The translations under genes were made by a program, and so were the position numbers. From the NCBI GenBank assembly GCA_030648615.1, contig JAUSHJ010000040.1:6769-70768 (forward strand): 64,000 nucleotides of DNA. The letters are read 5' to 3'. Shown here one piece after another: positions 9,655-57,174 of this stretch; within the stretch, counting starts at the first letter, position 1, and every line of letters starts with the position of its first letter. The notes below the pieces were generated by a model that was given only the letters and a program-made list of their open reading frames with translations, did not search any database and had not been told where the DNA came from. The stretch comes from Candidatus Micrarchaeota archaeon (GTDB lineage Archaea > Micrarchaeota > Micrarchaeia > Anstonellales > Bilamarchaeaceae).

Positions 9655-9715
9655 AATTTAATTTCTCCATTATGCTATAAATACCTTTCGATTTAAATCA
9701 AAATCAGGTGGAAAA

Positions 9716-10429
9716 ATGACAAAAACTATTTATCTCTATGACAGCTATGCAAAAGACTGTGACGCAATCGTACAGTTAATCGACGGCAAATTCATTATTC
9801 TCGATCAAACTGTTTTCTTTGCACGCGGAGGAGGTCAGCCTGGAGATACTGGGAAAATAGTTAGAGTAGGTGATAATGTTGAATTCACTGTTTTATCCGT
9901 AGGCAAGAAAGACGGAGTAATTGCTCATGAAGCAGACAAAGATGGTTTAGCTATTGGGGATAAAGTAAAATGTTCGATTAACTGGGATCGTCGCTATAGA
10001 CTAATGAGAATTCATACTGCTACTCACATATTAGCTGCAATAATGCACAAGGAAGAAGGTGTTTTGATTAGTGGAAATGAACTAGGGGAAGATAAGGCAA
10101 GAGTTGATTTTAACCTAGTGGACGTAACCAAGGAAAAAATTGAAGCGTACATAGTCAAGACGAACGATGCTCTTAAGAGAAATCTAGATATCAAAACCTA
10201 TTTCTTGCCAAGAGCAGAAGCACTGGCATTACCTGGAGCAGTAAAGCTTTTGGCTGCATTGCCACCTAACATAACTGAACTAAGAATTGTAGAAATTGGA
10301 GATGTAGACAGGCAAATTGACGGCGGTACTCACGTCAAAAATACATCAGAAGTTGGGGAAATTGAACTAATTAGGATAGATAATAAAGGGGCAAGTAATA
10401 GGCGGGTTTACTTTAAGTTGAAAGACTAG
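9716..10429 (+). CDS. alaXM: alanyl-tRNA editing protein AlaX-M
   Basis: GGGQPGDTG, HTATH, DGGTHV. Confidence 0.9.
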   Translation: MTKTIYLYDSYAKDCDAIVQLIDGKFIILDQTVFFARGGGQPGDTGKIVRVGDNVEFTVLSVGKKDGVIAHEADKDGLAIGDKVKCSINWDRRYRLMRIHTATHILAAIMHKEEGVLISGNELGEDKARVDFNLVDVTKEKIEAYIVKTNDALKRNLDIKTYFLPRAEALALPGAVKLLAALPPNITELRIVEIGDVDRQIDGGTHVKNTSEVGEIELIRIDNKGASNRRVYFKLKD

Positions 10430-10466
10430 TCAGTTATCCTGAGACAAGATATATCTAGTCTCAATC

Positions 10467-10542
10467 TATACAGAACCAGTGTCACGACAATTCGTGACAC
10501 TATTTGTCAACAATGTTGACAAACCAAAGTTGGTTCTGTATA
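10467..10542. repeat. hairpin (tatacagaacca/tggttctgtata) interrupted by a 48-bp two-hairpin module
   Basis: Inner gtgtcacga..tcgtgacac and tttgtcaaca..tgttgacaaa; AACCA duplicated at 10474 and 10522. Confidence 0.85.
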
Positions 10543-10586
10543 TAAACATTTCCTTACATCATAATATCCTCTAGGCTCCAAGTAAT

Positions 10587-10803
10587 AGCGGGGTAACGCA
10601 TTCTAAAACTTTTTAACATTTAGGGTGCGCCTCATGGGGAGCTTGGAGTTCCCGCTGGAAGTTGTATCTAGTATTTCTTATTGGATACATCTGGCAAAGC
10701 TCATAACCCAGTTGTGTCTTTTGATTAAAAGATGCAGGGCAAAGATCGATGGTTCAAATATTTGAACCACTTTTGGTTTGAGTTGGAATTCCATCCCCCG
10801 CTA
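10587..10803 (+). tRNA. initiator tRNA-Met(CAU) with four BHB introns (9/10, 30/31, 43/44, 59/60)
   Basis: Exons 10587-10595, 10636-10658, 10699-10711, 10743-10758, 10790-10803 give a 75-nt cloverleaf with A1-U72 and a GGG/CCC anticodon stem. Confidence 0.93.
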
Positions 10804-10834
10804 TTTTTATTTTTTTTGAGTCTAGAGTTCCCAA

Positions 10835-11053
10835 TTGTTCATCGTTATGAACAACACAATTTTCCGAAGTATCGGAAAATGTGCACATTGTTGCGTACAA
10901 CAATTGTGTGGGCGCAATTATTTTCTGCGGAAAATAATGCATTGTCGGCAGTGTCAAAAATGCCGACAAGTATTGACGCGTATAGCGTCAATGCACATTG
11001 ACAACACTTTGATTCATTGTCAATTGCGCATTGTTGCTCTGAGCAACAATTGC
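10835..11053. repeat. array of 8 contiguous short hairpins
   Basis: ttgttcat/atgaacaa, ttttccga/tcggaaaa, attgttg/caacaat, attattttc/gaaaataat, ttgtcggca/tgccgacaa, attgacgc/gcgtcaat, attgacaa/ttgtcaat, attgttgctc/gagcaacaat. Confidence 0.9.
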
Positions 11054-11094
11054 GTTTAGTCTCCGGTTTAGTGTTTCGAATTTTCTATCTAGTT

Positions 11095-12048
11095 CTAATT
11101 CACACTGCATCTAGAATTCGTACACGTGCTATTTCCAGAAATAACTGCACATGATAAAGTAGCCGAGTTTACATCGTTTCCTTGGCAGTAGTACTCTAAA
11201 ACTTTCGAGCTATCCACGCAAGTGTCCTGATAAAGAATTCCTGAGGCTACAACTGAACCTGCAATTTCTCTAGTTATTCCATCACTGTCAGTGCAACCAG
11301 TAGCATTCAAATTAGTAATACAAGCTCCATTTGTACAATGCGTGAGCGTAGGGCAGTTAACCAGATCATATGCTGAAGTATTTCCATTACAATAATATTC
11401 CGTTAATATGTTATTGGTGCATTTATCATCTGAGACGTCTAAGAATCCAGAATTATCATCTATTGTTACCTTACCAAATGTTGATATATTATATCCATCA
11501 CTATCAGTACAAGTAGTTTCTTTTCTTATGCATCTTCCATCATAACAATTAGTTTTTTCAGGGCATTCAGATATTGCACCATCTACCAGATTATCCTTGC
11601 AACTATACTCACGTATATTTTTGTTCCCGGTGCAAGAATCAGTTTTAGTATCTCCGTTCAATTCCACAGTTCCTTTCGTGAATAAGTCACTGTCATCACT
11701 ATCGGTACACGTGTTATTTTTCTTTGGGGTGCATTTACCGAAATAACACTGATACCCTTGTGGGCAATTTATTTTTTCTATTTGTACTAAAGATTCATTA
11801 CAATAATTTTCTTCCAAAGTTGTTATGCTGGTACAATGATCGGTAAACTTCTTATTTGCTAAAGTGACAAATCCTTCAGTGTATATATCTATTGCATTAC
11901 TTCCATTACAATAGTCTGCAGGTGTAGGAATTGTTTCTATCGTAGAGTTATTATTAGTTTTATTATCTAAATTTACTTTGTTTTTACTATTAGAAGTACA
12001 ACCAAACAATAAAACCAAAACTACCAGACACAGAAGAAATTTTTTCAT
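11095..12048 (-). CDS. Cys-rich repeat surface lipoprotein-like protein
   Basis: Lipobox-like LLFGC; four repeats of C-x-D/G-S-D/N...D-x-C...E-x-x-C...C...G-x-C. Confidence 0.8.
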   Translation of the reverse strand: MKKFLLCLVVLVLLFGCTSNSKNKVNLDNKTNNNSTIETIPTPADYCNGSNAIDIYTEGFVTLANKKFTDHCTSITTLEENYCNESLVQIEKINCPQGYQCYFGKCTPKKNNTCTDSDDSDLFTKGTVELNGDTKTDSCTGNKNIREYSCKDNLVDGAISECPEKTNCYDGRCIRKETTCTDSDGYNISTFGKVTIDDNSGFLDVSDDKCTNNILTEYYCNGNTSAYDLVNCPTLTHCTNGACITNLNATGCTDSDGITREIAGSVVASGILYQDTCVDSSKVLEYYCQGNDVNSATLSCAVISGNSTCTNSRCSVN

Positions 12049-12091
12049 ATAATATTTACTACACTAAAATTATAAAAACAGTATATTAATT

Positions 12092-12613
12092 CTAGATATA
12101 CTGCAAAGATAGTTTTCCTAAGTATGCAAGAATTGTGAAACTCAAAATTCTTCCGCAAGCTGTTGCAAGTAAATATCTCCATACTGGGATTTTTAATGCA
12201 CCTGCTGCCAAACCAGCAATGTCAAATACTGGGTTCGGAATTAATGCTAAAACAAATATTGCAAGGACGTCATATTTTTCTACCCATTCTTTGTATTTTT
12301 TGAATTGTGAATTAGTATTTATTATATCAGAAGCTCCACGGCCAGCAACGTAACCAGTCAGTTCTCCTATTGCAGATCCAGTTCCTCCTATCAATCCAAC
12401 AAGGATGGGATCCAGAGATCTGCCTAATGCCAATACGATAAATCTTCCAGGTCCCGGTATTAGAACTGTGGCAGACGATGCTATTGCAATTATAAATAAT
12501 CCCAAGTATCCAAGTTCTTTGAATTTTTCTATTTCGTTGTTTAGTGAAAATACCAGTATGATCGTCAATACTGCAAATACTATTTGAACTATTCCTTGGG
12601 TTTTTGTGTCCAT
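12092..12613 (-). CDS. DedA/VTT (SNARE-associated) membrane protein
   Basis: GSAIGELTGY..G, IPNPVFDIAGLAAG. Confidence 0.85.
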   Translation of the reverse strand: MDTKTQGIVQIVFAVLTIILVFSLNNEIEKFKELGYLGLFIIAIASSATVLIPGPGRFIVLALGRSLDPILVGLIGGTGSAIGELTGYVAGRGASDIINTNSQFKKYKEWVEKYDVLAIFVLALIPNPVFDIAGLAAGALKIPVWRYLLATACGRILSFTILAYLGKLSLQYI

Positions 12614-12625
12614 AATTATCACTAG

Positions 12626-12712
12626 TTGGCTCAGCTGATCCTCTTTCAGTCACTGTTGTCAGGTTACTTCGGGTACCCCGACCGACTAAATACCTCTACT
12701 CATCATCGCCAA
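12626..12712 (-). ncRNA. probable C/D-box sRNA or K-turn leader
   Basis: Minus strand ttggc-g-ATGATGA...CTGA-gccaa: C and D boxes closed by a 5-bp terminal stem, with an internal hairpin. Confidence 0.6.
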
Positions 12713-13048
12713 TTATAATGTGTTGGCGAGCTTTGAAAATACTTATCTTTTCAAATAAATATGTAATATCAGTGGTTATGGTTGCTAATTTAAAACCTAT
12801 CGAGACAAAGTATTCCTGCTATTGGCTATTAGTCAGTGGCAGGTTAGCTAATTATAAATTAACTGCTGTCACGATCGAGGAAACATCGTTTCCGAGATAT
12901 TTGCTCGATAGAGCAAACGGAAGTGACTGGAATTCTGTCTTTAAGAAATACTGAAGACTAGGAAGGCCATATTGCATTAGTTTAGCATTAGTCAATGGGT
13001 GATTGAACTAACTAGTTCAATACTCATAAATTACAGTAGTAATTTATT

Positions 13049-13198
13049 GGGCTCGTAGCTCAGTACCGTTTGTATCAATTAATATACTCGGTTGAGTAAC
13101 AGCAGAGCACCCGCCTTGCACGCGGGGGGCCGAGGGTGCGAGAGCTTTGTCCTGGCGGACAAAATTAGCCAGCAAAGCCGTCTATCCCTCCGAGTCCA
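13049..13198 (+). tRNA. tRNA-Ala(UGC) with two introns (~16/17: 13065-13098; 59/60: 13143-13184)
   Basis: GGGCTCG/CGAGTCC acceptor with G3-U70; anticodon arm cccgc-cttgcac-gcggg; T stem gaggg/ccctc; BHB-like junctions. Confidence 0.88.
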
Positions 13199-13211
13199 TT
13201 TCTTCTTTTTT

Positions 13212-13239
13212 GTCTTGTGTTGTGGGTCTTGAGTCTTGC
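13212..13239 (+). repeat. heptamer array
   Basis: gtcttgt gttgtgg gtcttga gtcttgc. Confidence 0.6.
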
Positions 13240-13477
13240 CTACTGACGAATGAAAAACCTATTACTATTAGCGTCAGCTATGGACGAAGGAGGGAAGAGT
13301 CTTGTTATGATAGTGTCTGGATTCAAACGAAACTGGTGCAACTGTCGAAAGAAAAAATATTATATTTGATGCCAGTGCCAAATAATAATCTGGTAAATCG
13401 CTATGCAATATTCTGGTACTATCAATCAGTTCCATTTATCTAACTTTCTCTCTTTAATATAGAAAAAAGGTAAGTAT

Positions 13478-14554
13478 ATGCAATTAAAGAAAACTCCGTT
13501 GAATGCAGCACATTATCGTTTAGGAGCAAAAATGGTTGAGTTTGGCGGCTGGGATATGCCTGTTCAGTATACTGGCATAATCGAAGAACATAATGCTGTA
13601 CGAAACACCGTAGGCATATTCGATGTTTCTCATATGGGAGAAGTATACGTTACTGGCCTCAATGCCAAAACATTCATAAATAATCTAATTACTAACGACA
13701 TAAACAAATTAGTGCCTGGCCAAATCTTATACTCCCCAATGTGCTATGAGCATGGTGGCATTGTTGATGATCTTCTAGTCTATAAATTTAGTGATGAGAA
13801 ATTTCTAATTGTTGTTAATGCCTCTAATATCGATAAGGATTTTGCCTGGATGCAGAAAAATTCTCAGGGTGCAGAATTAGTTGATCATAGTTCTGATGTT
13901 GGAGAAGTTGCGTTACAGGGTCCAAAAGCGCACTTAGTATTGCAGAAATTAACTAAGTTTGATTTGAATTCGCTCAAGACATTCTACTTTGCTGAATTCG
14001 AAGTTGCAGGGGTCAAGTGTTTAGTTTCAAGGACTGGTTATACTGGGGAAGACGGGTTTGAGATATATATTCAGGCAATAGAAACCGAGAATATCTGGAA
14101 TGCTATTCTAGAAGCAGGTCAAGAGTTTGGCATCAAGCCTTGCGGCTTGGGTTGTAGAGATTCATTGAGGTTAGAGGCAGGACTAATGCTCTATGGCAAT
14201 GATATGACTGAGAACGTTACGCCATTAGAAGCACCATTGAAATGGACGGTAAAACTTGATAATCATGAATTTATTGGAAAAAAAGCACTTCTAGAAAAAC
14301 CACTTACCAGAAAGCTAGTTGGTTTTGAATTATTAGAGCGTGCAGTTTCTAGGCATGGCAATGAGGTTTATATCAACGGGCAGAAGTTTGATTTAGTTGC
14401 CAGTGGTATTTTTTCTCCTACACTGCAGAAACCAATAGGATTTGCATTCGTTCCTATGGATTTACCAATGGGGGGAGAAATTGAAATAAAAATTAGAGAA
14501 GGAAAAATAGTTAAGGCAAAAATTTGTAGCCATAGATTTTATAAGAGGAAATAA
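13478..14554 (+). CDS. gcvT: glycine cleavage T protein (aminomethyltransferase)
   Basis: FGGWDMPVQY, FDVSHMG, RTGYTGEDGFE, RDSLRLEAG. Confidence 0.97.
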   Translation: MQLKKTPLNAAHYRLGAKMVEFGGWDMPVQYTGIIEEHNAVRNTVGIFDVSHMGEVYVTGLNAKTFINNLITNDINKLVPGQILYSPMCYEHGGIVDDLLVYKFSDEKFLIVVNASNIDKDFAWMQKNSQGAELVDHSSDVGEVALQGPKAHLVLQKLTKFDLNSLKTFYFAEFEVAGVKCLVSRTGYTGEDGFEIYIQAIETENIWNAILEAGQEFGIKPCGLGCRDSLRLEAGLMLYGNDMTENVTPLEAPLKWTVKLDNHEFIGKKALLEKPLTRKLVGFELLERAVSRHGNEVYINGQKFDLVASGIFSPTLQKPIGFAFVPMDLPMGGEIEIKIREGKIVKAKICSHRFYKRK

Positions 14555-14875
14555 TTATCTTCTAGTAACTACCTTTGCAAGCATCGGTGTTGTCTGTTCT
14601 ATCAATTCCATCTCAAGTTCCTTTATCTTTTTAACTAATGGATTCTTTTCATTCAATTTGTAAAGTACTGTTTTTCCAAACGTTCTGGTTGATTCTACTA
14701 ATTTTAATTCTATTAATCTGCCCCAATATTTGTAAAAAGTAACTTTGCTCAATCCAGTTTCATCTATGATTTGCTTCTTTGAATAGTCAAATAATCTATT
14801 TTCCAGTAGGAAATCAATCATTCTAAGTAGTGGAGTATCTCCCAAATATTCGATCAAAACTGATTTTTCTTCCAT
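14555..14875 (-). CDS. winged-helix DNA-binding protein
   Basis: IDFLLE..DYSKKQI...GLSKVT..W..L. Confidence 0.75.
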   Translation of the reverse strand: MEEKSVLIEYLGDTPLLRMIDFLLENRLFDYSKKQIIDETGLSKVTFYKYWGRLIELKLVESTRTFGKTVLYKLNEKNPLVKKIKELEMELIEQTTPMLAKVVTRR

Positions 14876-14938
14876 CTATTTCTTATGAAGATAATCATTT
14901 ATAAATCTATACTTTGAAAGGTATACTAAGTGAACTAT

Positions 14939-15208
14939 ATGGTATCAGATGATGAACTTAAGGCAACCATACTCCATCGTTTAGCCAAGAAGAGAAAGTG
15001 GGGAGAAAGCCATACTGCTTTTGAGAATGTAGCTAAAGGAGTTCCACCTCATTTCAAGGGGAGGATGAAAGATTTGGCAGAGGAACTCATTAAAGAAAAT
15101 TTTATTTTACAAAAACCAACTGGTTATGGTTTGCAAATATCCTTAAATGTTGGAAAGAGCGAAGAAATTAGATGGATCATTAAAAAATATCTACAAGTTG
15201 AACTATAA
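14939..15208 (+). CDS. conserved-looking small hypothetical protein
   Basis: KWGESHT..KGVP..KPT..SLN; divergent from the wHTH gene. Confidence 0.6.
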   Translation: MVSDDELKATILHRLAKKRKWGESHTAFENVAKGVPPHFKGRMKDLAEELIKENFILQKPTGYGLQISLNVGKSEEIRWIIKKYLQVEL

Positions 15209-15258
15209 CTAAACTTTATAAACGAAAGCAATAACTAATCAATATTGGGTAGTAGGTA

Positions 15259-15365
15259 GACAAGCTTGTTGCTTAGGGCAACAAGATGTCCACGCAATTG
15301 TCGAGCGCGACAATGCGCACATTGTTCGAAACATCGAACAATTGTGTTGTTGCAATGCAACAATT
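15259..15365. repeat. array of 4 hairpin modules upstream of gcvH
   Basis: cttgttgc/gcaacaag, attgtcg/cgacaat, attgttcga/tcgaacaat, ttgttgca/tgcaacaa. Confidence 0.85.
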
Positions 15366-15399
15366 GGATGCTAGAAGTTTGAGATTCGCTGGTGTTTTT

Positions 15400-15780
15400 A
15401 TGGCATTGAAATTTACAAAAGATCATGAATGGATAAGAACTGATGGAGATTTTGTAGTCGTAGGTATTTCTGATTATGCTCAAAAAGCACTCGGAGATTT
15501 AGTAAGTTTGGAATTGCCAAAAGTTGGCAGAGTTCTAAAACAACACGATAGTTTCTCGATTGTAGACTCGATGAAAGCAAGTAGTGATGTCTATGCACCA
15601 ATAAGTGGTGAAGTAGTAGAAATAAATTCCCCTCTTAATAATAATCCTCAATGGATAAACGAATCTCCCTATGAAAAAGGATGGATGATAAAAATTAAGC
15701 CATCAAATCCTGCCGAGTTAGATGTACTAATGTCAGAAGAAGATTACAAAAAATACCTTTCTGGTTTGGGTAGTCACTAA
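15400..15780 (+). CDS. gcvH: glycine cleavage H protein
   Basis: FTKDHEW, GISDYAQ, lipoyl site DSMKA, NESPYEKGW; start at the ATG after GGTG. Confidence 0.95.
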   Translation: MALKFTKDHEWIRTDGDFVVVGISDYAQKALGDLVSLELPKVGRVLKQHDSFSIVDSMKASSDVYAPISGEVVEINSPLNNNPQWINESPYEKGWMIKIKPSNPAELDVLMSEEDYKKYLSGLGSH

Positions 15781-17111
15781 TGAATTATATACCTATCACT
15801 GATCAAGACGAGAAAGACATGCTCGCATTGCTCGGGTTAAAAAATATAGAGGAATTGTTTACACATGTTCCAGCTAAGCTTAATCGTGACCTTGCACTCG
15901 GAGAGCCTCTAAGTGAACTTGAATTAAAGAAACATTTGCAGGAATTAAGTGAAAAGAATAACGTACTGAAATACTTTAGAGGTGCAGGAAGTTATTTGCA
16001 TTACGTTCCCAGTGCAATTAATCATCTTATTTTACGTGGTGAGTTTTTTACTGCATATACTCCATATCAGCCAGAAGTAAGTCAAGGTACTTTACAGGCA
16101 ATATACGAATTCCAAACGTTAATTTGTGCACTGACTGGTATGGATGTTGCAAATGCAAGTATGTATGATGTTGCTACAGCAGCAGCTGAATCTATGCTAT
16201 TAGCAAGAAGTGAAAATGAACGGAACGAAGTAGTCATTGCCAATCCATTAAATCCACAATATTTAGAAGTGTTGAAGACTTATGCTGCAAGTTGTGGATT
16301 TGTTTTACATGAGGGTATAAGCAAATTAACCGACAAGACTAGTTGTGTTATTGTTCAACAGCCAAGTTATCACGGATCTATAGAAGATTTAAAACAATTT
16401 TCAGACAAAATACATGAAAAAGGAGCAATGCTTGCAGTAATTATTACTGATCCTACTTCTCTTGCAATTATCGAACCTCCTGGGAGTTTTGGTGCAGATA
16501 TTGTTGTTGGGGACTTACAATGCTTTGGTAATGGGTTAAATTTTGGCGGACCGTCTGGGGGGTTTATGGCTGTAAAAAAACAGTTCATAAAGAAAATTCC
16601 AGGAAGACTTTGTGGAATGACAAATGACGATAAGGGAAATACAGGTTTCATACTTACTTTACAAGCAAGAGAGCAGCATATCAGACGTGAAAAAGCTACA
16701 AGTAACATTTGTACTAATCAGGCATTGAATGCACTTGCTTCTACTATTTATCTTTCACTTCTTGGTAAAACTGGTTTGAGAAATGTTGCTATGAAAAGTT
16801 ATCATAATGCGCACAAGTTACAAAAGTTGCTAGAGGTTAGCGGGTTTAAGCTAGTTGATGGTAGCAAACCATTGTCAGCGGGGCAAAAAAACGCTGACAA
16901 CATTTGTCACGAAACTCGTGACAAATCATTTTACAATGAATTTTTAGTTGAGACTCCAGTTCCAGTTAAAAATCTAAACGCAAAACTTCAAGACCACGGA
17001 TTTTTAGGTGGAGTAGAAGTTGCAGAAAACAAATGGTTGCTCTGTTGCACGGAAATGTTGGATGACAAGGATATTGAAAAATTTGTTGAGACCGTTAAGA
17101 GTGTGAAATAA
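15780..17111 (+). CDS. gcvPA: glycine dehydrogenase subunit 1
   Basis: TAYTPYQPEVSQG, NASMYD, REQHIRREKATSNICTNQ. Confidence 0.97.
   Translation: MNYIPITDQDEKDMLALLGLKNIEELFTHVPAKLNRDLALGEPLSELELKKHLQELSEKNNVLKYFRGAGSYLHYVPSAINHLILRGEFFTAYTPYQPEVSQGTLQAIYEFQTLICALTGMDVANASMYDVATAAAESMLLARSENERNEVVIANPLNPQYLEVLKTYAASCGFVLHEGISKLTDKTSCVIVQQPSYHGSIEDLKQFSDKIHEKGAMLAVIITDPTSLAIIEPPGSFGADIVVGDLQCFGNGLNFGGPSGGFMAVKKQFIKKIPGRLCGMTNDDKGNTGFILTLQAREQHIRREKATSNICTNQALNALASTIYLSLLGKTGLRNVAMKSYHNAHKLQKLLEVSGFKLVDGSKPLSAGQKNADNICHETRDKSFYNEFLVETPVPVKNLNAKLQDHGFLGGVEVAENKWLLCCTEMLDDKDIEKFVETVKSVK
16865..16930. repeat. 57-bp in-frame two-hairpin insertion inside gcvPA
   Basis: ttgtcagcg..cgctgacaa plus tttgtcacga..tcgtgacaaa between caaaccatt and caaatcatt direct repeats. 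Confidence 0.8.
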
Positions 17112-18539
17112 ATGACAATGCCAAAACTCATCTTTGAATACGATACGAAAAATACAAATCATGTTCCTACTGTGAACGAAAAGCTAGATTTACCAGAGCA
17201 TCTAATTAGAAAAGATCTAACCATTCCTGATATTAACGAAGTTGATGTTATAAGGCACTTCACAGAATTAAGCAAGAGAAATTATGGTGTAGATAATGGT
17301 TTCTATCCACTAGGTTCGTGCACAATGAAATACAATCCAAGGATAAATGAAGACGTGGCAAGATTAAACGGATTCGGAAATCTTCACCCATTAGCAGGAG
17401 ATGAAAATTCACAGGGTGTCCTAGAGCTTATGTACAATCTTGAGCACATCTTGTCAGAAGTAACTGGCATGGATGCTGTTTCATTGCAGCCAGCAGCAGG
17501 TGCTCATGGAGAAGTAACCTGTTGTATGATCGCCAGAAAGTACTTTGGAAAGAGTAGAAACAAAGTAATAATTCCAGATTCAGCACACGGAACTAATCCC
17601 GCAAGTGCAGCCATGTGCGGTTTTGAAATTGTAGAGGTAAAAACAAATGCAAAAGGCGGCGTTGACATTGACGAGCTAAGGAGTAAGGTAGATAGCAACA
17701 CTGCAATGTTTATGCTTACAAATCCAAGTACGTTAGGATTATTTGAAGAGAATATCGTCGAGATAAATAAAATCTTGCACGATGCTGGTGCACTAACCTA
17801 TTGTGACGGTGCAAACATGAACGCCATGATGGGCATCACAAGACCAGGTGATCAAGGTTTTGACATGATGCACCTTAATCTTCACAAAACTTTTAGTACT
17901 CCTCACGGTGGTGGAGGTCCAGGCGCAGGTCCAATTTGCGTAAAGAAACACCTAGCTAAGTATCTTCCAGTTCCAAGAGCCGTAAAACACGGTGACGGTT
18001 ACAAATTCGAATATAATTATCCAGATTCCATTGGAAAAGTAAAAGGATTCTTTGGAAATGTTGGAATGCTTGTACGTGCCTATGCCTATGCCAAAGCCTA
18101 TGGAAAGAATTTGACAAAAGTTTCACAGATCGCAGTTCTAAGTGCTAATTATATTATGCGTTCTTTGGATAAATACTATCATCTTCCTTACAATAAAACC
18201 TGTGCCCATGAATGTGTATTCAGCGGAGAGAAACAGGCAGCTAAAGGTGTACACACTATGGATATTGCTAAGCGATTATTGGATTACGGATTCCATGCAC
18301 CAACGATTTACTTCCCACTAATTGTAAAAGAAGCGATAATGATTGAACCAACTGAAAGTGAAAGCAAGGCAACGTTAGATTCGTTTATAGAAACGATGAA
18401 GAAGATTGCTCATGAAGTTGAAACGCAGCCAGAATTGCTTCATAACGCACCCACAACTACTCCTGTTGGCAGGCTAGATGGTGTAAAAGCAGCTAGGCAG
18501 CCTAACTTGAGATATGAACCTGTTTGTAGGATTTGCTAA
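17112..18539 (+). CDS. gcvPB: glycine dehydrogenase subunit 2
   Basis: [36 protein letters not shown]. Confidence 0.97.
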
Positions 18540-23463: not shown

Positions 23464-23831
23464 GGGCCCGTAGCGCAGCTAAAGTTTTGAGTCTCGATTT
23501 CTGTGTTTCGAATTTTATTCATTCGAAACCAAAAGTAGAAAACTGAAAACTTCTGCTATGGACAGCGCGGCAGCCTTCTAAGAAATTTCTTTCGGTAATC
23601 TAAAGAAATTTCATAAAGAAAGAGGAAAGCTGTAGGTCATGGGTTCAAAACAGTCTTCAGTCTTGAAGTTTTGAGTCTAGTAAAATTATAATTACGAGAC
23701 GTGAAACAGGACAACCATAAATCGACAAGCTTGTTGCTTCGAGTGATAAGATGCTCAGTGTTCGAACAATCGAACACTCGGGAACATCGATTTATCGGGA
23801 ACTGGAGACAGTGTATTTCCCATCGGGCCCG
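23464..23831 (+). tRNA. tRNA-Arg(UCU) with three introns (17/17a: 23481-23558; 37/38: 23581-23627; 59/60: 23650-23817)
   Basis: GGGCCCG/CGGGCCC acceptor, A20, G73; BHB motifs at all three junctions. Confidence 0.92.
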
Positions 23832-45059: not shown

Positions 45060-45322
45060 TCATGTGTCAATTCGGCACGGAAACTCATGGTTTGACGCGT
45101 AACGCCGCGTCAAATATTGACACGATACGTCGTGTCAATGGATTGTCAATACTTTGTTGACAAATAGTGTCACGAATTGTCGTGACACTGGTTTTAACCT
45201 TGGGAGGAAGTGCCGAATTTACACAACTTTGCCCTCCCAATTGTTCGACGCTTCGAACAATGGGCATATTGTTGCTTATAGCAACAATCTTGTAGGCTGT
45301 GGTGGCCGAATGGGCAAATCAT
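45060..45322. mobile_element. MITE/PATE-like dispersed element, copy carrying hairpin-module insertions
   Basis: Colinear with 51745-51874 plus a 101-bp four-hairpin insert between TGGTTT repeats and a two-hairpin replacement. Confidence 0.75.
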
Positions 45323-48301: not shown

Positions 48302-48357
48302 TCATGTGTCAATTTGACACCAGAATTTACATAACTCTCAATTGTTGCATTGCAACA
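48302..48357. repeat. truncated copy of the 45060/51745 element plus one hairpin module
   Basis: tcatgtgtcaatt...gaatttacataact followed by tgttgcattgcaaca. Confidence 0.6.
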
Positions 48358-51744: not shown

Positions 51745-51874
51745 TCATGTGTCAATTCGGCATGGAAACTCATGGTTTTAACTTTGGGAGGAAGTGCCGA
51801 ATTTACACAACTTTGCCCTTCGGCCCTAATGAAACCACAGCCTTTAGGCTGTGGTGGCCGAATGGGCAAATCAT
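51745..51874. mobile_element. MITE/PATE-like dispersed element, uninterrupted copy
   Basis: tgtgtcaattcggca/tgccgaatttacaca and tttgccc-ttcggcc..accacagcct-tt-aggctgtggt-ggccgaa-tgggcaaa. Confidence 0.7.
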
Positions 51875-51916
51875 ATTATTTTTTTGTTATTTGATTCTAA
51901 AAAGGTTTTGGTCAGA

Positions 51917-56192: not shown

Positions 56193-57077
56193 TTAATTGT
56201 TTGCAATATCAAGAATACTCTTGAACGTTGCGTAGGGGAATGCACCGCTTACTAGTACACCATAATTCCCTGCATCATCCTCAAATCCAACCACTGAAGT
56301 TTGGTATTGTGGTGGTAATGCATTTCTAACTACTGCAAATTTTGCCTGGAAATCAGGAGCTTTGGTCTTTGGCATTACTATAAACACTGCAGGAGTTCCC
56401 TGAACACCATATTGTTGGCCAATTGCAGCATCTGCAGTTATAGCATCTTTGTATTTAGATGTTGAAATGCACGATGCAAATTTATCTGCATTTAAATTAA
56501 GTGATGTAGCATATGCTTTGAATTTATCACTTACCGCAGTGCCTGCTAAGTTACTCCACTCATTCTGGCTGACAAATAATTTGTCATGATATTCCCAGAA
56601 CTTGCCCTGTTCATTTGCACATCTTGCAGCTCCTGCTGCTGGTTCTGCATTCGGATGGAATGGCAAAGGATAGTCTCTGAAGTACAGTTTTGCTTTTCCA
56701 GTATCGACATAATTTGTTTTCATCTGTGCTCCTGCTTCATTGTAAAACTTGCCACAGTAAGGGCACTGGAAATCACTGAATTCTATGATTGATACGACAC
56801 TATCATTGTTACCTCGTGCTACGAAGTCTCCTCCTGGCAGTGCTGGTATTCTAATAAGTTCTACAGGGCTGCTACCAGTTGTAGTGGTTGTCGTATCTGT
56901 AGTTCCTACTGTTGTGCCATTAGTATCTGTAGTTCCTACAGGAGGTGTCGTCTGTTTAACAATTCCAAATCCACCTGTAAATACAGATGCTATTAATAGT
57001 ATAGCTAAAACAGCTATTACTACTCCATAAATTGTTCCTTTGCTAAGCGTTACGCTATCATTATTTTCGTCTCCCAT
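56193..57077 (-). CDS. DsbA-family thioredoxin-fold protein
   Basis: EFSDFQCPYC, GVQGTP. Confidence 0.92.
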   Translation of the reverse strand: MGDENNDSVTLSKGTIYGVVIAVLAILLIASVFTGGFGIVKQTTPPVGTTDTNGTTVGTTDTTTTTTGSSPVELIRIPALPGGDFVARGNNDSVVSIIEFSDFQCPYCGKFYNEAGAQMKTNYVDTGKAKLYFRDYPLPFHPNAEPAAGAARCANEQGKFWEYHDKLFVSQNEWSNLAGTAVSDKFKAYATSLNLNADKFASCISTSKYKDAITADAAIGQQYGVQGTPAVFIVMPKTKAPDFQAKFAVVRNALPPQYQTSVVGFEDDAGNYGVLVSGAFPYATFKSILDIANN

Positions 57078-57102
57078 AAAAATCCCCCATTTTTATTCTC
57101 CA

Positions 57103-57174
57103 ATTTTTCGTTAGCGAAAAATGGACCACAAATCGAATCGATTTGTAGGTCTCGAAATTCTTTGAATTTCTCGA
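57103..57174. repeat. three contiguous hairpins upstream of the DsbA gene
   Basis: atttttcg/cgaaaaat, acaaatcg/cgatttgt, gaaattc/gaatttc. Confidence 0.6.

Follow-up and report, generated by a model that had tools for sequence, protein, structure and literature searches.

The window analysed here is a stretch of 64,000 nt from a Candidatus Micrarchaeota archaeon (G000:C65:6769-70768), G000 being its genome, a 1.65-Mb assembly of 76 contigs (C numbers) that is 89.75% complete. At positions 10835-11053 it carries an array of eight back-to-back hairpins, located in a 665-nt spacer between the 3' ends of two convergent genes. An earlier note, made from the sequence alone, regarded this array as a candidate for a new kind of system built of reusable mini-hairpins. 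Our analysis indicates that such hairpins are very probably units of a mobile insertion element, and that their arrays are probably piles of a lineage-specific, non-autonomous miniature mobile element. The array and its neighbours are as follows.

9716-10429, plus strand: AlaX-like gene (AlaX-type editing domain), left-hand neighbour
10835-10854: hairpin 1
10859-10880: hairpin 2
10887-10904: hairpin 3
10917-10938: hairpin 4
10942-10969: hairpin 5
10972-10992: hairpin 6
10997-11024: hairpin 7
11030-11050: hairpin 8
11095-12048, minus strand: Cys-rich gene with no Pfam match, right-hand neighbour

All eight hairpins were recovered by reading and by two inverted-repeat scans; their stems are perfect (7-9 bp) and their loops span 3-12 nt. 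In 1000 dinucleotide-preserving shuffles of the 219-nt array, the mean number of hairpins was 0.38 and the maximum was four, as opposed to eight in the real sequence. Folded as single-stranded DNA (ssDNA), positions 10825-11065 reach a predicted -68.1 kcal/mol versus -31.2 +/- 3.5 kcal/mol after shuffling (z -10.6), and none of 200 shuffles folded as well. The eight hairpins claimed in the earlier note are thus confirmed, and so is its statement that they do not form a CRISPR (clustered regularly interspaced short palindromic repeat) locus: units abut, their interiors differ and spacers are absent. Units 2 and 3 together make up one inverted doublet (cac-a-ATTTTCCGA..gtg / cac-ATTGTTG..-t-gtg) and units 7 and 8 another. 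No Rfam family matches the window at gathering score or positions 10400-11100 at E<=1, and no tRNA was detected in the window; for 9700-17200, no RNA source was listed. The roughly 290 nt between both hairpin blocks of the spacer (10543-10830) contain a 10-bp perfect palindrome at 10750-10769, with no notable open reading frame (ORF) and no Rfam or tRNA match.

Further units are found in the window at the following places, two of them being copies of a miniature transposable element with inverted repeats (MITE).

10467-10542: host hairpin with arms TATACAGAACCA / TGGTTCTGTATA, whose loop holds a doublet at 10478-10523 (AGTGTCACGA, TTTGTCAAC)
13002-13047: adjacent hairpin pair (ATTGAACT, ATAAATTAC), interpreted as a doublet belonging to this family
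15265-15366: array of four hairpins lying upstream of gcvH (CTTGTTGC, cgc-a-ATTGTCG..gcg, cac-ATTGTTCGA..-t-gtg, TTGTTGC)
16872-16926, plus strand: doublet (TTGTCAGCG, ATTTGTCACGA) inside gcvPA (15780-17111)
23717-23795: hairpin ATAAATCG..CGATTTAT with a nested insert of about 62 nt in its loop (CTTGTTGCT, degenerate; AGTGTTCGA acaa TCGAACACT)
45060-45322, plus strand: filled MITE copy
51745-51875, plus strand: intact MITE copy, serving as empty-site reference
57076-57170: four-hairpin array of the ACAAAT/ATTTTT subfamily in a spacer between two 5' ends (tcc-a-ATTTTTCG..gga / cc-ACAAATCG..-a-gg)

The motif recurrences listed in the earlier note all occur where it had placed them, with a single shift (TTGTTGCA starts at 48342, not 48343). 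Judged by GcvPA, the closest named relative is a Candidatus Micrarchaeota metagenome-assembled genome (72% identity in the search, 75% in the alignment) and next best matches likewise belong to Micrarchaeota, so the host is a DPANN archaeon. In the following, G001, G003, G013, G020, G023, G139 and G154 denote other genomes, and L numbers denote further contigs or stretches.

The whole genome was scanned for hairpins with a perfect stem of at least 8 bp and a loop of 3-12 nt, three locally shuffled genomes serving as controls. G000 contains 777 such hairpins, compared with 325, 337 and 297 in the controls, and 336 of them fall into 125 arrays of 2-8 units, including 38 arrays of 3-8 units. Units therefore do cluster genome-wide. 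The dominant outermost four bases are ATTG (110 hairpins). Altogether 567 distinct arms are present among the 777 hairpins; the common ones are ATTATTTTC (17), ATTGTTGC (14), ATTGTTCGA (14) and ATTGTTTTC (11), each combined with many different loops. By crude longest-ORF calls, which cover 88% of G000, 477 of the hairpins (61%) lie outside genes, i.e. in 12% of the genome.

Units follow a common plan: an outer stem of 3-4 bp, one bulged base, an inner stem of 8-10 bp, usually beginning with ATTG or a near variant, and a loop of 3-5 nt. The outer stem with a single extrahelical base, proposed in the earlier note, is real and common, since 66 of the 108 hairpins with an ATTG foot have an outer stem (3-4 bp) that is interrupted by exactly one base. 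When located on the 5' side, this base is mostly a purine (A 20, G 12, C 2, T 2), while on the 3' side it is a pyrimidine (T 18, C 9), as expected of a single structure read from either strand. The orientation of units that the note had claimed is equally well founded. Bulge placement is rule-bound, and the same test applied to all hairpins classified 139 of 777 as oriented in G000 versus 14 of 272 in a shuffled genome.

Neighbouring oriented units are not ordered at random. A unit with a 5' bulge is followed by one with a 3' bulge in 21 cases, both have the same orientation in five, and the reverse order does not occur (30, 8 and 0 at a looser cut). This bias indicates that units come as mirror-image doublets with bulges on their outer flanks, for example gcgc-A-ATTGTTTTC..GAAAACAAT-gcgc-ATTATTTTC..GAAAATAAT-T-gcgc. 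Symmetric inverted doublets measure about 51-60 nt; they are two-fold symmetric, with inverted termini of 7-8 nt. From one subfamily to another, foot and outer stem vary (ccc-R-ATTGTTCGA; acc-R-ACAAATxx with cc-ATTTTTxx-Y-gg; aca-T-TATTGTxx) while the plan remains constant.

Direct evidence of insertion comes from repeated elements that are present in both empty and filled form. The MITE is about 130 nt long and has imperfect terminal inverted repeats and a hairpin, ACCACAGCC-ttta-GGCTGTGGT, which was found 13 times; the element matches further loci. Its predicted ssDNA fold consists of two long arms (z -9). Intact copies are located at 51745-51875 of the window and on C12, C18, C40, C62, C63, C64 and C69, and MITE loci also include C10. 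Unit inserts occur in MITE copies at no fewer than five different points (at least five were counted). An identical insert of 51 nt, consisting of exactly two bulged hairpins, is found in five copies (C3, C8, C41, C32 and C33). One MITE subfamily with the fixed 51-nt doublet has kept spreading. In the filled copy at 45060-45322, a block of four hairpins (45091-45189) lies between ..catgg and ttttaacc.., and a doublet at 45236-45288 (ccc-a-ATTGTTCGA..ggg, ATTGTTGCT) has taken the place of part of the hairpin belonging to the MITE. The C70 copy has inserts at five points. At a site where the window and C70 copies have two doublets, the C53 copy has only the first, so blocks are built up one doublet at a time. 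An IS200 copy was targeted as well: an internally deleted, transposase-less derivative (C44 45739-46087) contains a four-hairpin block between ..agtttcc and ctggg.., which are contiguous in intact copies on C47 and C63 and so define the empty site.

Units were also inserted into genes, in frame. The gcvPA doublet (16872-16926) is read as about 20 extra residues (LSAGQKNADNICHETRDKS) that are missing from five orthologs. An ATP-grasp/citrate-lyase-like gene (C56:6357-7757) has about 42 extra amino acids encoded by four hairpins, and its G003 and G001 orthologs join across the insert point with 2-3 residues. Another gene (C34:17922-18863) has 24 extra amino acids missing in G001, G023 and G003, and a FolC-like gene has about 24, missing in G013, G154, G023 and G003; its alignment with a solved FolC has a 17-residue gap. 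Thus, in all four genes checked against orthologs of the same family, the in-frame insert is lacking there. Compared with a solved homolog, the hairpin-coded segment of a phospho-sugar mutase contains extra residues that lie between two matched stretches. The same doublet occurs in the same frame in two of these genes (DEKFDxKIFQNCKLSNLQY), and a third gene shares its second hairpin. The bulged-hairpin doublet has been copied, with clean borders, to unlinked sites in coding sequence, mobile elements and hairpin loops.

Comparison of orthologous loci reveals gain or loss of units. G000:C39:21625-31717 has a syntenic counterpart in the metagenome contig L157 (80-85% nucleotide identity), and unit content differs in all three aligned intergenic spacers. 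A hairpin that G000 has in intact form (TGTCAGCA..TGCTGACA) contains, in L157, a doublet within its loop. L001, the nearest relative (72-80% protein identity), is syntenic in the gcv region and has its units at other places; on another stretch, L151, the array side was not syntenic with C41, which leaves L151 out of the comparison. Two small genes lie between gcvT and gcvH in the window (14555-15208), one of which resembles a winged-helix DNA-binding protein by eye. In L001, gcvT is the direct neighbour of gcvH, and a stretch of about 2 kb separates gcvH from gcvPA instead; judged by gene order, the gcv cluster appears to be under rearrangement around hairpin arrays.

The reuse of units in different orders, noticed earlier, is borne out by BLAST: segments of one array match different loci at 80-100% identity and in both orientations. 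The array at 15265-15366, for example, aligns with C41 42311-42419 over 109 nt (95%) and partially with many other loci. Arrays are mosaics that arose by repeated insertion beside or into earlier units, resembling bacterial interspersed mosaic elements (BIMEs). Insertion into the loop of an older hairpin is clear in five cases: 10467-10542 and 23717-23795 of the window, the apical loop of the C70 MITE copy, C41 30482-30628, and L157.

Stems stay perfectly paired while loops drift. Fifteen common arms, counted from the 5' and from the 3' arm, have 148 perfect partners both ways, with 17 and 11 one-mismatch partners, respectively, and 11 two-mismatch partners both ways. Two orthologous hairpins were found that differ between G000 and L157, and both show compensatory double changes (TGACGTGA/TCACGTCA versus TGACATGA/TCATGTCA; TTCAAATAC/GTATTTGAA versus TTCAAATAT/ATATTTGAA). 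Copies of a single element in G001 and G013 likewise keep their stems and differ in loops. Such a pattern would be expected if the hairpins were functional host signals kept by selection, be it 3'-end or stability elements, operators of dimeric regulators, or chromatin and segregation sites; most units are indeed intergenic, and the array at 10835-11053 itself separates convergent genes. On the contrary, arrays are found in all types of spacers (57 tandem, 20 convergent and 14 divergent) at proportions close to the baseline of all spacers (1014, 267 and 272), 27 further arrays overlap ORF calls and eight are at contig ends, and units show no preferred distance from gene starts. Units also lie inside coding sequence, a MITE and an insertion sequence (IS), their interiors and spacings are too variable for one sequence-specific dimer, and Rfam offers no counterpart even at the E<=1 applied to the spacer. 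We regard host signals as an improbable explanation of the units; a secondary use by the host may have followed insertion. Intrinsic terminator-like hairpins were rejected on the same distribution (14 arrays in divergent spacers, 27 over ORF calls, no gene-start distance rule).

Occurrence of two unit patterns was determined in related genomes. The unit ATTGTTCGA-N3-5-TCGAACAAT is present in 4 of 41 of them (16 copies in G000, 7 in G001, 4 in G013 and 1 in G003), where its reversed control pattern gave no match. ATTRTTTTC-N4-GAAAAYAAT is present in 6 of 176 genomes of the order (28 copies in G000, 3 in G023, 2 each in G001, G020 and G154, and 1 in G139), all six from one family (f1). Taken together, eight genomes including G000 carry the patterns; they represent five genera of a single family and share the same doublet and bulge rule. 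The unit family is confined to one clade and expanded in G000. Viral contigs gave only single isolated matches to two unit patterns (1 and 37 contigs); a viral vector was rejected, as these matches have no outer stem, bulge or neighbouring units and are read as chance.

A non-coding element of about 200-260 nt, 91-95% conserved between two genera, was noticed in G013 (two copies, L172 2932-3189 and L173 2821-3076) and G001 (L174 2958-3155). It holds a hairpin doublet and a TGAAACCGA hairpin, and adjoins a remnant of a reverse transcriptase (RT) C-terminus; no common adjacent gene was found for its G013 and G001 copies. The element may be a relic associated with a diversity-generating retroelement (DGR).

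Since G000 is a metagenome-assembled genome, assembly artefacts have to be considered. Several arrays with the same unit order lie at contig ends, and contigs C24, C29, C70 and C71 begin or end inside arrays, meaning that arrays break assembly. As a check, we used k=31 contigs from the run that is probably the source and from two more runs in its study. These contigs also break at modules, and they tile the arrays with 0 differences, although they are not independent of the assembly. A single "skip" joint leading from 10938 to 13016 (side 22) probably reflects joining at a repeat. Units and doublets of the same kind, however, recur in other genomes and in eight metagenome contigs, and four genes keep their reading frames open across inserts, so an artefact is hardly credible. 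A 152-nt contig from another sample of the study (run X2, record 10) matches the gcvPA doublet (16872-16925) with five differences and in a different context, so that community contains related doublets at another locus or in another organism.

A number of observations weigh against a mobile element with a dedicated enzyme, and we treat them together, beginning with the insertion borders. At the nine junctions examined, overlaps are variable (0-7 nt) and ambiguous, e.g. ATGGTTT, TGG or TCC, and neither a constant target duplication nor a shared target word was found. Such overlaps are equally compatible with a transposase and with annealing or template switching. Palindromes could then be generated locally without any enzyme, by fold-back or template-switch replication errors, arrays would expand locally, and recombination would spread blocks. 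It agrees with this explanation that neighbouring units are often near-copies (e.g. ATTATTTTC beside ATTGTTTTC) and that hardly any stem is imperfect, as though one arm had been copied from its partner. Yet near-identical doublets are found at unlinked sites with clean borders (two genes in the same frame, the 51-nt MITE insert, the IS copy), which requires transfer from a donor copy. Moreover, several genera have the same stems, bulge rule and doublet order, pointing to recognition of a defined structure. Template switching as the source of the family is therefore unlikely in our opinion.

The same junctions bear on another possibility, that the doublets are ordinary MITEs moved by a DDE transposase through their terminal inverted repeats, e.g. 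GCGCAATT..AATTGCGC. The two-fold symmetry with its 7-8 nt inverted termini would suit such elements, and the genome does hold at least one classical MITE family. But a target duplication of fixed length is missing from all nine junctions, and terminal words differ by subfamily (ccc, gcgc, cac, acc, aca) while structure is constant, making this explanation very improbable.

Other points on the opposing side concern target preference, function and data. In the predicted MITE fold, one of five insertion points falls in an apical loop, three fall at helix ends or weak pairs, and one inside a stem. Nested hairpins number 29 genome-wide versus 17 and 14 in two controls, and this modest excess, together with the five clear cases, is what the loop preference rests on. 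Perfect stems and their conservation across genera could also mean host use of the hairpins. The k=31 contigs show no indel at arrays, i.e. no polymorphic insertion, but such contigs drop rare variants. Finally, gene context statistics inherit the crudeness of the ORF calls.

Further opposing points concern the enzyme. The earlier note expected that a trans-acting HUH (Y1) transposase or a recombinase assembles and spreads the units. The sole Y1 family in G000 is a 160-aa TnpA of IS200 type with HVH and YIENH motifs (PF01797, 104 bits), of which the genome has several copies, located where contigs end.

G000:C47:14087-14846 (L081): IS200 element with a leader of about 360 nt; ends also at C26 1-141, C37 1-141 and C63 1-124

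End hairpins of IS200, examined in C47, C63, C44, C26 and C37, are GC-rich (AGAGGGG.., GCGCTGCC.., CCCAGCAC..) and unlike the units in foot, composition and bulge rule, and IS200 is itself a target of unit insertion (C44 copy). Among the 41 genomes, Y1 is present in 2 of 6 unit-bearing ones versus 11 of 35 others. It is unlikely that the resident TnpA moves the units. Profile search found no TnpB (PF07282) in G000. Two tyrosine recombinases (PF00589, on C22 and C71) and one RT (PF00078) are encoded, the latter as part of a DGR with template and variable repeats alongside. They do not track the units either: the C71 integrase family is present in 5 of 6 unit-bearing genomes versus 13 of 35 others, and RVT_1 in 3 of 6 versus 8 of 35. 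Genes flanked by four or more units over both sides encode a membrane protein, a KH-like protein and two short within-array ORFs; none is transposase-like by eye, no family search having been run on them. Consequently, no enzyme could be tied to the units among Y1, TnpB, integrase and RT families, the search having left aside DDE, Y2, Rep, IS110 and PD-(D/E)XK. As the genome is about 90% complete, an enzyme gene may have been missed. The mobile-cassette proposal thus stands in one part, inserted and spreading DNA (MITE, IS200, four genes, L157), and is not supported in the other, the Y1 enzyme.

Two of the genes mentioned lie close together on C71. The DGR (G000:C71:1615-3687, L112) has its RT in two overlapping frames, 1615-2283 and 2213-2722, which, from the reading frames, may reflect a frameshift. 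An Asn-rich template-like repeat (..GPVGRDDNNFNN..) is located at 2667-2942, and a 194-aa target gene has a matching variable end (..GPVGRDDYFVYRRYVF..). The C71 integrase, about 4.3 kb away from the array with which the contig begins, is a tyrosine recombinase of 403 aa carrying a zinc ribbon at its C-terminus (G000:C71:4462-5673). It is 94% identical to that of G013:C6:167207-168406, whereas housekeeping proteins compared between the two genera are only about 60% identical, which suggests recent horizontal transfer of an integrative element. The transferred element is a possible route for sharing hairpin modules.

As for mechanism, doublets or two-doublet blocks have inserted into intergenic DNA, mobile elements, genes and hairpin loops. 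Recognition would be by shape, given a constant foot and bulge next to an interior and loop of free sequence. By analogy with REP/RAYT systems (repetitive extragenic palindromes and their REP-associated tyrosine transposases), IS200/IS605 and attC, movement might proceed via folded ssDNA with a structure-specific enzyme acting in trans. A single-strand or hairpin-directed mechanism is suggested, tentatively and weakly, by loop insertions and by the absence of a fixed duplication. In its boldest form, the proposal is a first archaeal system resembling REPINs (inverted REP doublets) and mechanistically distinct from them: two-hairpin transposons of about 51-60 nt, recognised by shape, moved by a non-RAYT, non-Y1 enzyme, preferring extruded loops, which would make arrays self-seeding, and repeatedly donating in-frame peptides to core enzymes. 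This remains conceivable, with the balance somewhat against it.

The mobile element interpretation raises a concrete question, namely which enzyme moves a two-hairpin module of 50 nt. Natural controls are available in one genome, as MITE and IS copies exist in intact and filled form and inserts can be checked against orthologs. From a practical point of view, modules break short-read assemblies of such genomes and inflate ORF calls.

Several known systems share features with the units. Like ends of IS200/IS605 elements and of their miniature derivatives, palindrome-associated transposable elements (PATEs), units have hairpins with an irregular base, subterminal in those elements, no target duplication, and an expected action on single strands. 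Unlike IS200/IS605, there is no constant target word 5' of unit insertions, and the resident IS ends do not resemble units. End hairpins of IS608 are co-oriented, whereas the hairpins of our doublets are mirror images. Identity with PATEs was rejected, since unit ends are not resident IS200 end hairpins and the search for TnpB found none. Integron attC sites are imperfect hairpins in which extrahelical bases give polarity; the units share this anatomy, and their arrays likewise grow by insertion. An integron attC array was rejected too: ORFs or cassette genes are absent between units, there is no integron-type integrase context, and the recombinases are on C22 and C71. Elements of the IS1397/ISKpn1 type insert into REP loops. 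Together with nested MITEs, they parallel the five clear loop insertions described above, with the difference that the inserted DNA here is a hairpin doublet and not an IS.

The closest likeness is to REPs, BIMEs and REPINs. REPs are imperfect palindromes of 20-40 nt mobilised by RAYT, a Y1 HUH transposase (PF01797) whose single-copy gene has REPs on its flanks, and REPINs are about 100 nt long. The analogy with REPs and BIMEs made in the earlier note is sound with respect to anatomy and can be made more precise, for what moves is the inverted doublet, as in REPINs; this agrees with the neighbour counts (21/5/0) and the clean 51-nt MITE inserts. Common features are short palindromes with a stem irregularity, hundreds of copies and mostly extragenic location. 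As in BIMEs, arrays are mosaics of several unit types with alternating orientation within doublets (the 38 arrays of 3-8 units), and as with REPs, the elements are confined to one lineage and common to related genera. In contrast to REPIN-RAYT systems, the host is archaeal, and no RAYT-like gene was found in G000 or via the Y1 search of relatives. Units also differ from REPINs in being doublets of about 51-60 nt with AT-rich stems and many copies inside genes, and in their ends: feet are ATTG/CAAT or near variants, flanked by ccc, gcgc, cac or acc and a bulged base, and there is no GTAG/CGTC tag. Such a tag, GTAG or CGTC, is conserved at one palindrome end of REPs, according to the available part of Di Nocera 2013 (PMC3733652).

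The earlier note knew of no description in this kind of archaeon, and our literature searches found no such elements described in Micrarchaeota or other DPANN; supplementary tables of PMC6006769 and PMC12306157, which may list archaeal cases, were outside their scope. In its accessible sections, the Y1 survey of Quentin et al. 2018 (PMC6006769) gives archaea with IS200-type TnpA only, and REPINs are said to be undetected in archaea in the portion available of 10.1101/2021.07.10.451892. The archaeal MITEs listed in the part of PMC10969869 at hand come from Sulfolobus, haloarchaea and some further groups, and none of the genomes named there is DPANN. RepRanger (2025, PMC12306157) reports "REPs" in Euryarchaeota and Crenarchaeota, the term covering any intergenic palindrome that is not a terminator; neither a DPANN genome nor RAYT is mentioned in its accessible text. 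REP/REPIN-RAYT systems have been treated as a bacterial speciality, and here a look-alike occurs with hundreds of units, and without RAYT, in a reduced, symbiont-type archaeal genome.

A further parallel is offered by Rickettsia palindromic elements (RPEs), which, in the available part of PMC10969869, are palindromic repeats inserted in frame into unrelated housekeeping genes, adding a peptide and leaving the gene unbroken, as the units do. They differ in that RPEs are about 150 bp long and bacterial (same part of PMC10969869), while modules described here measure 51-126 nt, consist of 2-4 mini-hairpins, and are mostly intergenic and arrayed. In-frame inserts in gcvPA, the FolC-like gene, the citrate-lyase-like gene and others represent a route that adds loops to archaeal proteins, as RPEs do in Rickettsia. 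The hairpin doublets are a genuine, genome-wide and non-random feature, which we rate as a REPIN/BIME-like and RPE-like family of miniature mobile elements, without RAYT, in a DPANN archaeon.

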